DNA of 63,908 bases, filler included, from an uncultured Methanosarcinales archaeon (GCA_964492935.1; 3 parts of 3 records of this genome joined end to end with filler, not necessarily neighbours in it), one strand, 5' to 3'. Counted from the first letter of the whole stretch, positions 1,340 to 45,427 are shown. Program-made: numbers and translations. Notes: generated by a model from the letters alone, not told the origin.

Positions 1340-1439
1340 CATGTCAATAACCTGCGGTGATTGAGCACATTTCCTTCGCCCGTGACAAGTACGGGTTGAA
1401 ACAAATGTTTATATAGAGTTAGACGAATCTTCTTACTAT

Positions 1440-1530
1440 GGGCCCGTGGTGTAACGGATAGCACAGTTGGCTTCGGTGGGTTAATTCCTGATGAAACCAG
1501 CTAATCGGGGTTCGAATCCTCGCGGGCTCA
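1440..1530 (+). tRNA. tRNA-Arg(UCG) with 19-nt intron (1477-1495) at position 37/38
   Basis: Acceptor GGGCCCG/CGGGCTC, anticodon stem GTTGG/CCAGC, loop CT-TCG-G|A, T arm CGGGG-TTCGAAT-CCTCG; relaxed BHB (CTTC/GATG); TTTATATA upstream. Confidence 0.92.
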
Positions 1531-1582
1531 TTTATTGTTCTCAAAAGCAACCTTTTTATAGTCATTGTTTCTGTATAAGTAT

Positions 1583-6034: not shown

Positions 6035-6727
6035 ATGAAATTACACTGTATTGCTTTGATTTTAGCTTTATTCTTAGTTGTGGGCTGTGCTGTCCAAGAG
6101 CCTATTGCACCTGAAGAGACTGTTGAAGAGGTTGAAACGGTTGAGATTGAAAGCGATGTTGATTCTGTTGAGGAGACTACTGACGAGGTAGTTGTTGAGG
6201 AAACTCCCGTAAGTGGTGAGCTTCCTAATGAAATTAGTGCTATTATCAAGAAAGGTGCATCTCGGCTTAGTAGTTATGATTACAACTATCGTGGACCGGA
6301 AAGTGGTCAGTTATTTAGCGTGACGGTTAAAGGGAGCAAGATGAGGATTATTCTTCCAGAGACTAATGTTGAGGAGCAGGGGAAATTCTATAATTATATT
6401 TACCTAGATACTGATGCGAAAACTGCTAAGGCGCATTGCGTTGGACATTCCAAATGTGGTGGAGTCGTAGGAGAGATTAAGGATTTGGTGTATGCTACTG
6501 CTTACCTTGACACCCCTCTAGATTGGTTGGCTCAGGTTACTTCTGCAGAGAAGATTGAGGAACGGCAGGTCGAGGGAAGAGATACTCTTATTCTGGAGAC
6601 CAATGTAGGTACGGTGGCTTTGGAGGAGTATTATGGTTTTGTGTATAGGATTGACAGTGACGATAACACATGGGTGTTTAGCGATGCCTCTTTTAATTCG
6701 GTGAAAGATTCCGAGGTTACTCCTTAG
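6035..6727 (+). CDS. Putative lipoprotein / secreted protein
   Basis: Signal peptide with lipobox-like VVGC followed by an acidic linker. Confidence 0.7.
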   Translation: MKLHCIALILALFLVVGCAVQEPIAPEETVEEVETVEIESDVDSVEETTDEVVVEETPVSGELPNEISAIIKKGASRLSSYDYNYRGPESGQLFSVTVKGSKMRIILPETNVEEQGKFYNYIYLDTDAKTAKAHCVGHSKCGGVVGEIKDLVYATAYLDTPLDWLAQVTSAEKIEERQVEGRDTLILETNVGTVALEEYYGFVYRIDSDDNTWVFSDASFNSVKDSEVTP

Positions 6728-8572: not shown

Positions 8573-9184
8573 GTTTGCTTCTTTGATGATGTTTTCGATT
8601 TTGCCTTCTGCATTAATATCGCGAAGAATTCCTTTTTCTTGGTAGTAGTTGATAAGGGTTTTTGTTTGCTCGGAGTAGGTTTCTAGGCGGCGTTCGATGG
8701 TGGCTGCGTTATCATCAGATCTCTGAATGAGTTGTCCGCCGCACTGGTCACAGACGCCCTCTTGCTTAGGGGGCATGTTGATGAGGTGGAAGATCGCGTG
8801 GCAGTTTGCGCAGGTTCTTCTGTTTTCAACGCGTTCAAGGATGATTGCCTTGGAGCATTTTAGATTGAGGACATGGTCGATATGAGTGATATGTTCCAAT
8901 TCGTCTGCCTGTTTTTGAGTGCGAGGAAATCCGTCGAGAATGAAGCCGTTTTTTGAGTCTGAGTGTTTTAGTCGTTGTTTCAGTAGCTTGATTGCCAGTT
9001 CGTCTGGTACCAGTTGTCCCGCATCCATATACGGTTTTGCTTCCTTTCCGATCTCATCTAGGACTTTGATTGATTCTCGTAGTAAGTCTCCAGTGCTAAT
9101 CTGGGGAATGTTGAATTTTTTCACGAGACTTTTAGAAAGGGTCCCTTTGCCAGCCCCCGGAGGACCAAATATGATAATTCTCAT
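8555..9184 (-). CDS. adk: Adenylate kinase, bacterial-type with Zn LID
   Basis: GPPGAGKGT, ISTGDLLR, GFILDGFPRT, CANC...CDQC, QRSDD. Confidence 0.96.
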   Translation of the reverse strand: MRIIIFGPPGAGKGTLSKSLVKKFNIPQISTGDLLRESIKVLDEIGKEAKPYMDAGQLVPDELAIKLLKQRLKHSDSKNGFILDGFPRTQKQADELEHITHIDHVLNLKCSKAIILERVENRRTCANCHAIFHLINMPPKQEGVCDQCGGQLIQRSDDNAATIERRLETYSEQTKTLINYYQEKGILRDINAEGKIENIIKEANSILSK

Positions 9185-9238
9185 TTTTTCACTTCTAATG
9201 AGTTCAGAATATGTTTTTAAATGTTGTTATAAAAGAGA

Positions 9239-9311
9239 AGCCCCCGGGGAGAGTTGCACTCCCGACCTTGTGATTACAAGTCACACGCAATAGCTACTAT
9301 GCTACGGAGGC
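9239..9311 (-). tRNA. tRNA-Thr(UGU)
   Basis: Minus strand GCCTCCG...TGTGA-CT-TGT-AA-TCACA...GGGAGTGCAACTCTCCC-CGGGGGC-T. Confidence 0.93.
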
Positions 9312-9374
9312 GTGCTTACAATACCTCTTTGGGTCCTAGCCTTTGTAAAGGCTAGCTATCTTTGCTACGGAGGC
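9312..9374 (-). repeat. Duplicated 5' end of tRNA-Thr(UGU) fused to a 35-nt hairpin element (copy A)
   Basis: 9353-9374 repeats tRNA nt 1-21 (9291-9311); 9324-9358 is identical to 45319-45353. Confidence 0.9.
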
Positions 9375-9462
9375 ATGAGTGTTATGAGGACAGGCGGGGT
9401 TTTATAAAGATTATCTTTCCGGGATAGAAAACTATATATATTGTGGATGTTAAAATGAGGGT

Positions 9463-9798
9463 ATGAAGATTACAATTGACACGAAAGAGGACAGCCACGA
9501 GGAGATTGAGCATGCGTTATCGCTGTTGAAGTCGCTGGTGGGTAAGAAAGTGTATACGAACAGTCCTAATATCTTTGATAGTGGTAGTAATGTGGTTGGG
9601 TCAGAAGTGGTGGATGATGTGCCGGCTACTGAACAGGCTGCCGAACCTGCTAGTGGTAATATTTTTGGCAATATGTTTGGAGATAGTTCTGCTGCAAGTA
9701 GTAGTGCTCCTGCTAGTGCTGTAGAAACGATTGAGGTTGTGGATGAACCTGAAGTTGAAGAAGAATCTGATGATCATCCAGAAGTTATTACGTACTAA
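9463..9798 (+). CDS. Hypothetical protein with acidic low-complexity C-terminus
   Basis: 111-aa ORF, TATA and GAGGG RBS upstream. Confidence 0.65.
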   Translation: MKITIDTKEDSHEEIEHALSLLKSLVGKKVYTNSPNIFDSGSNVVGSEVVDDVPATEQAAEPASGNIFGNMFGDSSAASSSAPASAVETIEVVDEPEVEEESDDHPEVITY

Positions 9799-19261: not shown

Positions 19262-20413
19262 ATGGTTGCTACATCGATGCATTATATTTTTGGTGTGTTG
19301 ATTGCATATTTTCTTGGCTATCGCGGAAATAAGAAATTTTGGATTGGTTTAGTTGCGGTGATTCCTGATTTGGATGCGATTTTCTTTATTGTTCTGGCTG
19401 CTGGTCGGAATATTTTCAATTATAGCTTGGATTTTTATGAGAGTTCGCAGACTGCAGTTATGATGTTGGGGCATCGAGGGATTAGTCATTCGTTGTTGTT
19501 GCTTGGTGTGGTGTTGTTGGTTACATTAGCTTTTACTCGAAAGAGGCAGACGTTACTTGCTGTTTTTTGCATTTGGGGCTCGCACTTGGTGTTGGATGCT
19601 TTAACTTCATGGAAGATGTTTCCGTTGTTGCCGTTTTCGTATGCTCCCTTTTATTTAGGGATTGTTGAGGTGTTTGATAGCTGGTTGATGTTCTTTACCT
19701 CGTTGATGTTGGCATTCTTGATCTGCTCATCGTTGATTGAGAATGAATCGAAGAAGGGCCCGGTGTTTGCTTACCTATTCTTTCTGTTGTTGGGAGTGTA
19801 TCCTGCAATAAGAATGAATGAATTTAATATTCAGACTCTGGTGCTGTCGCAGCTCGTTATGTTGGTTGCTATCGTGTATTGTGTTCAGGCGTTGAAAAAG
19901 CGTCGCAAGAGGAGGTTGGTTCGGTTTGTTGGTCGTGGCGTTAAGGTAAGTTCATTTCTTGCGGTTGGCTATCTAGTATTGTTGATTGTTGGAAAGGCTT
20001 TCTTTGCATTTTCTTATTCTGTGCCGTTTACTGCTCTTGAACCGTTGGAGGAATTTGCTTTTAATGGGAATACTCACACGTACGAGTTGATTGAGGGAGA
20101 TGCGTATCGTGTTGGAATGGTTTCATTGATGGGAAGGGAACAAGAATTAGTGATTCCGATTGTGGTTAATGATATTGGGGTTGATGGTCGATTGGTGCAG
20201 GAATATCGGGAAGCGTATGGGTATGCGTTGCATACGAACTGGATTAATTATCCGGTGTGGACGTTTAAATCTGAAAACGGCGAGATTTATGTTACTATTC
20301 GGTATGCTAAGAGTTTCTTGCCTACGGAGTTTAATCCTGGACCTTCTCGAGGTATGAATGTGCAATTGCAGGATGGGATGTTGATTCGTTATGGTAGAAC
20401 TCGGTTTGATTAA
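19262..20413 (+). CDS. Membrane-bound metal-dependent hydrolase (YdjM-like)
   Basis: H..., IPDLD, HRGISHS, SHLVLD motifs and multiple TMs. Confidence 0.82.
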   Translation: MVATSMHYIFGVLIAYFLGYRGNKKFWIGLVAVIPDLDAIFFIVLAAGRNIFNYSLDFYESSQTAVMMLGHRGISHSLLLLGVVLLVTLAFTRKRQTLLAVFCIWGSHLVLDALTSWKMFPLLPFSYAPFYLGIVEVFDSWLMFFTSLMLAFLICSSLIENESKKGPVFAYLFFLLLGVYPAIRMNEFNIQTLVLSQLVMLVAIVYCVQALKKRRKRRLVRFVGRGVKVSSFLAVGYLVLLIVGKAFFAFSYSVPFTALEPLEEFAFNGNTHTYELIEGDAYRVGMVSLMGREQELVIPIVVNDIGVDGRLVQEYREAYGYALHTNWINYPVWTFKSENGEIYVTIRYAKSFLPTEFNPGPSRGMNVQLQDGMLIRYGRTRFD

Positions 20414-21843
20414 TAGCCGCGACCGAATAGAATCTTAGCTACTGCTTCTTTATTGCATTGAACGCATTTTCCTGTTGCTAGGGTTTTTGCGAATGGGATG
20501 TTGAGTGATTTTGCACCGCCGGTTTTGTCTTTTGTGATTTCTTCACAGCTTTCTTGGCCGCACGATAGGGCTAGGGCTAGTTTTTTGTCATCGATCGCTT
20601 TCTTGAACTGTTTCATGTCTTTTACTTCAACAATGTTTTCTTCTAGTGCTTTTTTTGATTGTTTATAGAGATTTTTTTGGATTGCTTCTAGGGTTTTGTC
20701 TACGTAGTCTTTAAGGTCATCTATTTTGACGGTTTCTTTCTTTTGGAGATCTCTTCTGTAGACTACGACTTCATCTTTTTCTAGGTCTCTTGGGCCTAAT
20801 TCTATTCTGATGGGGACTCCTTTTAATTCGTATTCGTTGAATTTCCAGCCGGGCGAGTATTCGTCGCGATCGTCTAGTTTTGCATCTAGGGTTTTCGCGA
20901 TGTCTTTTGCGGCTTTCAGTACTTTTGCTTTTGAGTCTTTGAATAAGATAGGGACAATGACGGTTTTGATGGGCGCTAGGCTTGGAGGGAGTACTAAACC
21001 ATTGTCATCGCCGTGGACCATGATTAAGACGCCAATCATTCTTGTCGTTATTGCCCAGGTGTTCTGCCAGGCGTGTTCGGTCTTTTCGTCTTTGCTGAGG
21101 AAAGTGATGTCAAATGCTTTTGCGAAGTTTTGGCCGTCGTGATGAGCATCTGGGCCTTGGATTGCCTTGCCATTGGGTAGGAAGTACTCTATGGATAGGG
21201 TGTAGAGTGCTCCGGCGAACTTTTCGTGGTCTGTCTTTCTGCCGGGAACGCCGTGTAAGGCAAATAAGTCTCGAGAGACGTCTTCCCACATTTGGAGTCT
21301 TTGGTTGCACTCCTTTTCTGCTTCCTCTTGGGTTGCAAAGACGGTGTGGCCTTCGCACCAGAGGAATTCTCTCGTTCTTAGAAACGGTACAGGGTGTTTG
21401 AATTCCCATCGTACTACATTGTTCCATTGGTTGTACAGTAAAGGTAGATCTCTATGTGAACGAATCCACTTGGAATAGGATTCATACATGATGGTTTCTG
21501 AAGTAGGTCGAATAGCTAAGCGTTCGTCTAGTTTGGAGTCGCCTGCATGGGTTACCCAGGCTACCTCGGGAGAGAAGCCTTCAACGTGGGCTGCTTCCTT
21601 TTGGAGTAGTTTTTCTGGGATGAGAAGTGGGAAGTATACGTTTTCGATGCCATCTGCCTTTAGTCGTTTATCTACCTCTGATTGAATTTTCTCCCAGATG
21701 GCGTAGGAATAGGGTTTGAAGATGATGCAGCCGGAAACGGATGAATAGTCTGCTAGATCTGCTTTTTGGATGACTTCGGTGTACCAGGTGGACATGTCTT
21801 CGTGTTTCTTTACACTCAGGCCTGCAGATTGTTTTTTCCCCAT
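20410..21843 (-). CDS. proS: Proline--tRNA ligase, archaeal/eukaryal type
   Basis: WYTEV, RPTSET, QWNNVVRWE, FLRTREFLW.EGHT, C-terminal FGRGY. Confidence 0.97.
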   Translation of the reverse strand: MGKKQSAGLSVKKHEDMSTWYTEVIQKADLADYSSVSGCIIFKPYSYAIWEKIQSEVDKRLKADGIENVYFPLLIPEKLLQKEAAHVEGFSPEVAWVTHAGDSKLDERLAIRPTSETIMYESYSKWIRSHRDLPLLYNQWNNVVRWEFKHPVPFLRTREFLWCEGHTVFATQEEAEKECNQRLQMWEDVSRDLFALHGVPGRKTDHEKFAGALYTLSIEYFLPNGKAIQGPDAHHDGQNFAKAFDITFLSKDEKTEHAWQNTWAITTRMIGVLIMVHGDDNGLVLPPSLAPIKTVIVPILFKDSKAKVLKAAKDIAKTLDAKLDDRDEYSPGWKFNEYELKGVPIRIELGPRDLEKDEVVVYRRDLQKKETVKIDDLKDYVDKTLEAIQKNLYKQSKKALEENIVEVKDMKQFKKAIDDKKLALALSCGQESCEEITKDKTGGAKSLNIPFAKTLATGKCVQCNKEAVAKILFGRGY

Positions 21844-45186: not shown

Positions 45187-45273
45187 AGCCCCCGGGGAGA
45201 GTTGCACTCCCGACCTGCGCTTTGCTCGATTGCGATTACGAGAGCGCCGCTATAGCTACTAAGCCACGGAGGC
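45187..45273 (-). tRNA. tRNA-Thr(CGU) with 14-nt intron (45223-45236)
   Basis: GCCTCCG acceptor, GCGCT-CT-CGT-A|ATCGCAATCGAGCA|A-AGCGC, CTCG/CGAG central helix (BHL-type). Confidence 0.92.
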
Positions 45274-45369
45274 AGGGTAAGGTGTTTGCTCGTGCTATTG
45301 CTTCACAATAGCACTTAGCCTCTTTGGGTCCTAGCCTTTGTAAAGGCTAGCTACCTAAGCCACGGAGGC
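45274..45369 (-). repeat. Duplicated 5' end of tRNA-Thr(CGU) fused to the 35-nt hairpin element (copy B) plus a second hairpin
   Basis: 45348-45369 repeats 45253-45273; 45319-45353 is identical to 9324-9358; GTGCTATTG-CTTCA-CAATAGCAC at 45292-45314. Confidence 0.9.
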
Positions 45370-45427
45370 ACAAGCATTCTCACACGAAATCAGCAACATT
45401 TATAAATCTTGACACCAAGATGAGCAT

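Follow-up and report, generated by a model that had tools for sequence, protein, structure and literature searches.

A probable truncated mobile element and a duplicated tRNA 5' end upstream of tRNA-Thr(UGU) in a DPANN archaeon

In the genome of an uncultured archaeon (GCA_964492935.1) the gene for tRNA-Thr(UGU) is preceded by a second copy of its own 5' end, joined to a palindrome, and the question arises what this structure is and how it came to stand between a promoter and a tRNA gene. The window, i.e., the whole stretch of DNA analysed, is 63,908 nt long with filler included and comes from the genome called G000 here; G001 is another genome of the same genus (g1). The host is a tiny marine archaeon belonging to an order of the DPANN, Woesearchaeota type. 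The locus probably holds a truncated copy of a small, non-coding, structured DPANN mobile element, which together with a duplication of ca. 22 bp of the tRNA 5' end makes up a derived insertion before tRNA-Thr(UGU).

Table 1. Features of the two tRNA-Thr loci of the window and inserts at other tRNA genes of G000 (positions are counted from the first letter of the window unless a contig is named)
Feature	Position	Strand	Evidence or remark
TATA-like box TTTATAAA, tRNA-Thr(UGU) locus	9401..9408	-	26 nt 5' of the first base of the duplicate; read from the sequence
Left direct repeat, 22 nt, GCCTCCGTAGCAAAGATAGCTA	9353..9374	-	copy of tRNA-Thr(UGU) nt 1-21
Hairpin H1, perfect 20-nt palindrome CTAGCCTTTACAAAGGCTAG, 9-bp arms	9336..9355	-	sequence, fold
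Conserved single-stranded core GACCCAAAGAGG	9324..9335	-	family consensus GAYCCAAA plus 4 variable nt; invariant columns
Spacer, 12 nt, TATTGTAAGCAC	9312..9323	-	sequence
Intact tRNA-Thr(UGU); first 21 nt are the right direct repeat (9311-9291)	9239..9311	-	ARAGORN; Rfam tRNA, 61.1 bits
Box TTTATAAA, tRNA-Thr(CGU) locus	45399..45406	-	29 nt 5' of its duplicate
Left direct repeat, tRNA-Thr(CGU) locus	45348..45369	-	tRNA-Thr(CGU) nt 1-21 plus one extra base; alignment score 39, 23 nt
H1 (45350-45331) and core (45330-45319)	45319..45350	-	identical to the first locus; CM 52.2 bits
Second hairpin H2, 9-bp stem	45292..45314	-	fold z -4.95; compensatory changes preserve H2 in G001
tRNA-Thr(CGU), 14-nt intron at 37/38	45187..45273	-	Rfam match; ARAGORN on identical metagenome copies
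Insert at tRNA-Glu, G000	C19:10509-10700
Insert at tRNA-Val(GAC), G000	C3:52324-52450
Insert at tRNA-Ile, G000	C19:12240-12470
Insert at tRNA-Pro(GGG), G000	C2:7850-7980
Insert at one tRNA on C46, G000	C46:4400-4780
Insert at tRNA-Ser, G000	C3:47900-48432

The duplicate differs from the start of tRNA-Thr(UGU), GCCTCCGTAGCATAGTAGCTA, by one substitution and one extra base (local alignment score of 33 over 25 nt, three flanking bases counted in), and its last three nucleotides, CTA, are at the same time the first three of the H1 palindrome. The fusion of a tRNA 5' copy with a palindrome, described in the first-pass annotation, is confirmed by both sequence and alignment, as is the position of the promoter box at initiation distance from the duplicate. 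The insert proper is 41 bp long, or 63 nt with the left repeat, and the tRNA downstream of it is complete without any removal (ARAGORN, Rfam) and identical to its G001 orthologue over the compared stretch.

A 35-mer of the insert (9358-9324) occurs in two exact copies in the window, against an expectation of 0.00 from shuffled sequences. The second copy, at 45319-45353, which had likewise been noticed at first pass and holds, sits at the other tRNA-Thr, on the next contig of the assembly, after a repeat of the 21-22 nt with which its own tRNA begins. At both loci direct repeats of the tRNA terminal segment flank the insert, with one copy lying within the intact tRNA (at tRNA-Thr(CGU) the right repeat is 45273-45253, against the left one at 45369-45348), as at the borders of att sites. 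As with MITEs, the window copy is short, non-coding, and multi-copy, and both filled and empty sites are known; terminal inverted repeats are absent from the window copies, the sole inverted repeat being the H1 palindrome at one end. The 12-nt spacer looks, by eye, like a cut-down version of the H2 region within the 45-nt spacer (45318-45274) of the CGU locus, and the window copy is a truncated, eroded member of its family, comprising H1, the core, and a 12-nt stump. Three scans with Rfam 15, including those at thresholds of E<=1-5, gave tRNA matches only at or near the elements. Elsewhere in the window, 6151-6223 (+) is a weak match to the C/D-box snoRNA snoR43 (30 bits vs. a gathering score of 50), and 1439-1531 (+) is a tRNA left unnamed by ARAGORN (anticodon 'cggt'), whose anticodon loop holds a 22-nt insert in the Rfam tRNA alignment.

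In G001 (contig C21) the same promoter box lies 25 nt 5' of the same tRNA with nothing between them, the 63 nt being missing. The leader is also absent from all five tRNA-Thr(UGU) loci compared in other genera of the family (G005, which is marked unpublished, G010, G007, G004, and G003) and from both tRNA-Thr(CGU) loci (G011 and G008), and of 14 family genomes two have the strict motif, both of which belong to genus g1. Since the site is empty in G001 and in five other family genomes, the filled state is derived, and on this comparison of sequences the 63 nt between the promoter and tRNA-Thr(UGU) can be regarded as shown to be a derived insertion. By parsimony, the UGU leader would have been gained in the G000 line, and the CGU leader in the ancestor of the genus, since the latter is found in G001 too, where its 5' copy has decayed; alternatively, the repeats may have allowed a precise loss of the UGU leader in G001. 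The first-pass annotation had proposed a tiny mobile element, had suggested a comparison of orthologous tRNA-Thr loci for empty sites, and had held that a leader common to every relative would speak against mobility. The leader is missing from all seven tRNA-Thr loci of the other family genera, and the mobile reading proves largely right in view of the empty G001 site and of a multi-copy, patchy family. The contig of G001 with the empty site also holds an insertion of its own (L002, C21 ~2360-2490): ~130 bp just 5' of the tRNA-Thr(UGU) promoter, absent from G000, with terminal inverted repeats starting GGTATGTGCATAGCTGC and flanked by repeated CAGGAAAG. Its inverted-repeat motif is the boundary of larger units bearing H1, core, and H2 in genomes G084 and G099.

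Copies of the module were searched for at three levels of sensitivity. The exact G000 core with two mismatches allowed was found in 9 of 201 genomes, which is near the control rate for single matches and a strong undercount. A pattern built from seven copies, with the 5' half of H1 left out, gave 35 loci in species-representative genomes, 33 of them in records with archaeal titles (10 Woesearchaeota, 12 Nanoarchaeota/Nanoarchaeia, 9 'Methanosarcinales', 1 Aenigmatarchaeota, and 1 'uncultured archaeon') and two in bacterial ones, which look like chance (repeat scores of 17-18). The same pattern gave 43 loci on metagenome contigs, and two motif patterns gave 0 matches in a viral contig collection. 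Finally, CM R1, which covers H1, core, and H2, detected the family at E<=1e-3 in 30 of the 151 genomes sampled from the order, with 1-11 copies in each (G125, marked unpublished, is among the positives).

The structure recurs with the sequence. CTA stands at the 5' side of H1 in 32 of 33 copies, and the fourth H1 pair is of the Watson-Crick type (G-C, A-T, or T-A) in 31 of 33, although the 5' half was not in the search pattern. A fold of H2 with z<-1.5 was obtained for 27 of 35 copies vs. 5 of 34 control windows; in an alignment of 27 sequences 98.1% of cells are paired, a value reached by 0 of 500 shuffles, and five of the seven H2 pairs change on both sides. The copies also erode: H2 and H3 are lost in the window copy, and H3 in L068 as compared with L066. 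Together these data show a structured, non-coding, multi-copy, patchy family with a conserved two-hairpin core and a preference for the ends of tRNA and small-RNA genes. No description of it was found in the literature outside subscription journals, and it has no Rfam family. Readings of the module as a K-turn, C/D box, H/ACA, T-arm mimic, CRISPR-repeat-like sequence, or small ribozyme were rejected by eye, their defining motifs being missing. A search of G000 for the complement of the single-stranded core, as a pairing RNA partner, gave no telling match.

According to a reading of the listing, 24 of the 33 archaeal loci touch a tRNA gene; of the 43 metagenome loci, 24 have a tRNA called by ARAGORN at a distance of up to 400 nt, and several others hold parts of a tRNA that it cannot call. 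The copies occur in the following arrangements: (i) a duplicate of the tRNA from its 5' end to the D-loop, followed by the element and the intact tRNA, which is the type of the window, with Thr, and also Asn and Gly, as hosts; (ii) the mirrored arrangement on the opposite strand, in which the duplicate comprises the tRNA 3' end as far as the T-loop or T-stem; (iii) the intact tRNA, the element from the discriminator base, and then a copy of the 3' end; (iv) the element inside tRNA introns; (v) the element at other sites, among them the 5' end of a C/D-box sRNA gene; and (vi) the element within larger units with terminal inverted repeats (G084, G099, G086, and G199), one of which, in G199, has a 9-bp target duplication. 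Both orientations and non-RNA sites are represented. The commonest host, across genera, is tRNA-Thr with all three anticodons.

A direct repeat abutting H1 with a score of at least 22 was found in 22 of 37 rows (length 11-45 nt, median 22 nt), and in most repeat-bearing rows it runs 0-6 nt into H1, which constitutes junctional microhomology. The sRNA gene of arrangement (v) (L135, G084:C229, ~20250-20520), with a terminal stem GCGCC/GGCGC, C box GATGATGA, and D box CTGA, follows a repeat of its own first 24-27 nt plus the element, so the target class appears to be small stable-RNA genes and not tRNAs alone. Before one tRNA-Thr (L052/L102) two elements of different subfamilies stand in tandem, each with a 5' copy of its own and the outer one decayed, which indicates repeated insertion at the same kind of site. 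In a metagenome locus behind tRNA-Met (L094) the element tail has an inverted 10-nt copy (GAGTGGATTT) of the tRNA T-arm.

Some family members are shown to be bona fide BHB introns. In L103 and L118 the element lies within the T-loop of two different tRNA-Pro genes, at position 59/60. Its 5' border consists of the T-stem CCCGG, UUCA, a 3-nt bulge, and the H1 5' arm, and its 3' border of a copy of the H1 3' arm, UGAA, a 3-nt bulge, and CCGGG, so that the T-stem, a 4-bp helix UUCA/UGAA, two 3-nt bulges, and a 9-bp helix form the canonical BHB motif. Cuts after the second base of each bulge take out 80 nt and restore a 7-nt T-loop; after this cut in silico ARAGORN calls tRNA-Pro(UGG), and on the uncut sequence no tRNA. 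In two further genes the element lies in a 37/38 intron, namely in L060, a tRNA-Thr(UGU) which has a leader copy as well, and in L136, a tRNA-Arg(UCG), with the central helix CUUC/GAAG. By these four loci the family is related to, and in part made of, archaeal tRNA introns; this kinship, like the truncation of the window copy and the occurrence in MITE-like units, had escaped the first-pass annotation.

In G000 itself CM R1 finds three copies (52, 43, and 16 bits). Behind tRNA-Gly(GCC) on G000:C19 there is a longer version, in which ~70 nt, including two hairpins, lie between the same H1 arms, and which is closed by a 19-nt repeat of the tRNA-Gly 3' end; at tRNA-Gly(GCC) of G001 a short and a long copy stand in tandem. 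Inspection by eye suggests that the short form is the long one with the part between two CAAAA stretches deleted. ARAGORN counts 16 tRNAs in G000 vs. 28 matches above the Rfam cut-off, and, since many of the latter are 106-143 nt long, most tRNA genes of this genome are taken to be interrupted. Other small repeat-flanked inserts (39-130 nt), bounded by copies of 5' or 3' tRNA ends, were seen at six tRNA genes (Table 1); those at Val and Ile also hold an inverted copy of the tRNA end, and the C46 locus has an N stretch. H2 of the tRNA-Glu leader shares 22 of 26 bases, by eye, with the L080 element. A third tRNA-Thr, probably GGU (L025, G000:C3:52183-52320), has the same first 27 nt followed by an interruption of ~90 nt; motifs resembling a C box and a D box (AGATGAA ... 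CTGA) in the latter mean that a C/D-box sRNA may sit inside an intron. Throughout the order (the window loci, L002-L020, and L047-L130), tRNA-Thr has the T-loop UGCAACU or a similar one, without the usual UUC, and the D-loop palindrome UAGCUA in place of GG, which together suggest a D-loop/T-loop contact that has co-varied. The palindrome may explain why tRNA-Thr is the favourite host.

As to the route of arrival, DNA-level recombination with the tRNA terminal segment as the shared sequence would be the likeliest mechanism: an excised circle with a single repeat may have been integrated in an att-like or Campbell-type manner, or copy-choice may have taken place between tRNA-Thr loci; the source would be a copy associated with tRNA-Thr. 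The sequence by itself is compatible both with this route and with an entry into the D-loop, as proposed at first pass. Repeat-flanked copies of this kind would be the state that can give rise to an intron when one repeat is lost. Recombination of this kind is favoured by the lack of a linked recombinase, by the searches of G000 (84.8% complete) for TnpB (PF07282, 0 matches), RT, and Cas1, none of which was found, and by repeats that vary with the target, a variation that one site-specific enzyme would not easily accommodate. None of 149 ORF pieces flanking the 33 loci matches an integrase or transposase family, the neighbours being housekeeping genes only. G000 has two XerA-like recombinase genes, located on contigs other than those of the elements, and tyrosine recombinases do not track the element count in a comparison of five genomes with five, being no more numerous in element-rich genomes (5, 2, 1, 4, and 1) than in element-free ones (3, 2, 4, 2, and 3). 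Between two inverted copies in G199, 3.7 kb encodes carbamoyltransferase and SGNH-type proteins.

The XerA-like genes (G000:C42:5171-6242 and the whole of C57, 1,681 nt; L151 and L152) code for proteins 86% identical to each other. A small ORF that weakly matches the Vsr endonuclease stands behind each of them, and a segment of ~120 nt located 5' of them recurs on five other contigs; the pair and these repeats may represent strain heterogeneity or a mobile unit.

The repeats also limit the choice of partner. At the UGU and CGU loci each upstream 5' copy has the variable bases of its own tRNA's type, and the extra base is A in the former and G in the latter, so the left repeat at 9374-9353 is not derivable by a single crossover with the 45369 copy as it now stands. 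It resembles, with GCA, then A, then AGATAGC, the loci L067, L091, and L130 more than the 45369 copy, and this likeness, combined with the cut-down H2 spacer, is a further misfit with a single crossover with the second copy of the window.

From the promoter spacing, transcription is predicted to start near the base with which the upstream copy begins, so that the precursor of tRNA-Thr(UGU) would carry a 63-nt structured leader; the empty G001 site implies an almost leaderless transcript. Removal of the leader by RNase P is suggested by the intact downstream tRNA and by the gene for archaeal RNase P RNA in G000 (117 bits). In the MFE fold the 3' acceptor strand pairs with the upstream copy and not with the true 5' end (z -3.57), which makes a competition of the two 5' copies in the modelled precursor possible.

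Such a precursor admits another reading: the hairpin, core, and 5' copy may be a functional part of pre-tRNA-Thr that is selected and kept by the cell, and not a parasite. It could control folding or processing through competition for the 3' acceptor, or provide a small RNA released by RNase P. The computed fold agrees with this, as does the prevalence of tRNA-Thr of every anticodon among the hosts across genera. At the CGU locus, moreover, H1 and the core differ between G000 and G001 at 1 of 32 positions and H2 is kept by compensatory changes, while the adjoining intergenic DNA is strongly diverged; this conservation fits host function as well as copy correction. However, the pattern is absent from 12 of 13 other family genomes and from every tRNA-Thr locus compared in other genera, the module is also known from other tRNAs, an sRNA gene, non-RNA sites, and MITE-like units, in either orientation, and its copies erode, the upstream 5' copy on G001:C46 having decayed by G7A and a 9-nt deletion. 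A host-selected leader is accordingly rather unlikely.

An origin as the scar of a larger element, i.e., of a virus or plasmid that was integrated at the tRNA 5' end by its integrase and then mostly deleted, with attL, a stump, and attR remaining, is unlikely. The repeat does extend from the tRNA terminus to a stem-loop, as archaeal att sites do, and there is a precedent, in the available extract of Sugahara 2012 (PMC3293823), in a 5' fragment, a 1.9-kb recombinase element, and a rebuilt tRNA-Thr. What speaks against a scar is that dozens of loci have the same structured module of ~50-100 nt between the repeats and not random stumps, and that neither an integrase nearby nor a match among viral contigs was found. 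Nor did any locus turn out to have a long element behind H1; in L082 the 10 kb examined hold no repeat of at least 9 nt from the last 30 nt of the tRNA, and the genomes behind L050, L069, and L077 have no second copy of the 18-nt tRNA 3' end.

According to a third alternative the upstream copy is the true exon 1 of a gene with a D-loop intron, and the element together with the downstream 5' copy is removed by the tRNA splicing endonuclease. The family does include true BHB introns, the TATA spacing places initiation at the upstream copy, the two copies of UAGCUA, being self-complementary, could pair into a central helix, and EndA is present in G000. Yet no canonical BHB can be drawn for the window copy on inspection, and none appears in the computed fold: between the D-stem and the candidate 4-bp helix stand five unpaired bases, a distal helix is missing, and the candidate overlaps H1. 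The completeness of the downstream tRNA and its identity to the G001 gene, the decay of the upstream copy on G001:C46, and the presence of RNase P RNA also count against a D-loop intron, which makes it very unlikely.

Finally, an assembly or binning artefact (the first-pass annotation had named an assembly artefact as what would refute its reading), in which the two tRNA-Thr loci were misjoined through their common 35-mer, has a negligible probability: the 35-nt repeat does break short-read contigs, several of which end at it as in short-read graphs, but contigs of four other metagenome runs, including X14, X8, X9, and X6, cover the junctions (record 2 of X14 spans 9245-9557, record 10 of X8 spans 9100-9353, and records 21 and 22 of X9 span 9240-9358 and 9329-9560, all with 0 differences), the metagenome contigs L097 and L123 have the identical locus, and such spanning by contigs of independent runs excludes an artefact. 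A contig with the empty-site junction (9375 to 9311) was not seen among the contigs of the four runs, which by itself does not demonstrate its absence.

The reading of the window copy as a truncated mobile element may be extended, though only tentatively, to a previously undescribed class of DPANN mobile elements, which would insert at small stable-RNA genes with duplication of ~20 nt of the gene end, leaving the gene functional, and, on loss of one repeat, could become BHB introns. Leader, trailer, MITE-borne, and intron copies would then be stages of one process, with tRNA-Thr of the window at the first of them, and successive stages of intron gain in archaeal tRNA genes would have been caught alive. 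Intron gain by such genes, their splitting, and the scattering of their fragments form an old open question, and according to the abstract of a 2026 preprint on Asgard tRNA introns the arrival route 'remains open' (10.64898/2026.10.13.758758); the element may help to show how introns are acquired. One family is found in four states, namely as an insertion flanked by tRNA 5' or 3' repeats, as a canonical or T-loop BHB intron, at a C/D-box sRNA gene, and in a MITE-like unit, and a gain dated between two genomes of one genus provides alignable material for tests of insertion and intron conversion. For annotation, the elements explain why tRNA finders miss or mis-call genes here, as in the disagreement of ARAGORN and Rfam over G000. 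The window copy alone is a small eroded remnant, probably of little effect on the cell, and its interest lies with the family behind it.

Among known systems, the IS200/IS605 and REP/RAYT elements (HUH, Y1) resemble the family in having a subterminal hairpin as the most conserved feature. They make no target duplication and insert beside a fixed target of 4-5 nt, whereas the H1 family has long target repeats, which argue against membership of the Y1/HUH family. For the link to Y1/HUH enzymes considered at first pass no signature was found, the proteins searched for in G000 being TnpB and RT, of which neither was detected. MITEs are likewise short, non-coding, multi-copy, and patchy, and in G084, G099, G086, and G199 the module lies within units with terminal inverted repeats; the window copy and the copies at tRNA ends, however, lack such repeats and are asymmetric, with a hairpin at one end only and variable repeats of 11-45 nt.

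With archaeal BHB introns the family shares the occurrence of related sequences in different tRNA species (L103 and L118 at 59/60, L060 and L136 at 37/38), and 'transposition' of such introns between tRNA genes was reported in Thermoproteales (Fujishima et al. 2010, in the available extract of the review PMC4033280). The window copy differs in lying outside the tRNA body and having no BHB, and it comes from a DPANN lineage and not from the Thermoproteales. Most copies of the family form a leader or trailer with target repeats at its borders, a state for which no report was found among intron families.

The borders of SSV- and pNOB8-type integrations into archaeal tRNA genes, and especially the Caldiarchaeum tRNA-Thr(GGU) case, as far as the available extract of Sugahara 2012 (PMC3293823) goes, resemble the window locus in having a partial copy of the tRNA terminus 5' of a complete tRNA-Thr and foreign DNA between the two. 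The view of the first-pass annotation that neither standard model fits was too strong, since 5'-terminal tRNA repeats have been described there in archaea; the same extract ties such insertions to intron gain. The direct repeat comprises nt 1-27 in Caldiarchaeum and nt 1-21 in the window, and both run from the gene end to a stem-loop. The Caldiarchaeum insertion is 1,868 bp long and has a putative recombinase, whereas that in the window (relatives 40-200 bp) has no ORF and no recombinase nearby. In contrast to the Caldiarchaeum case as presented in that extract, the H1 module is one and the same structure found at many different tRNAs with different repeats.
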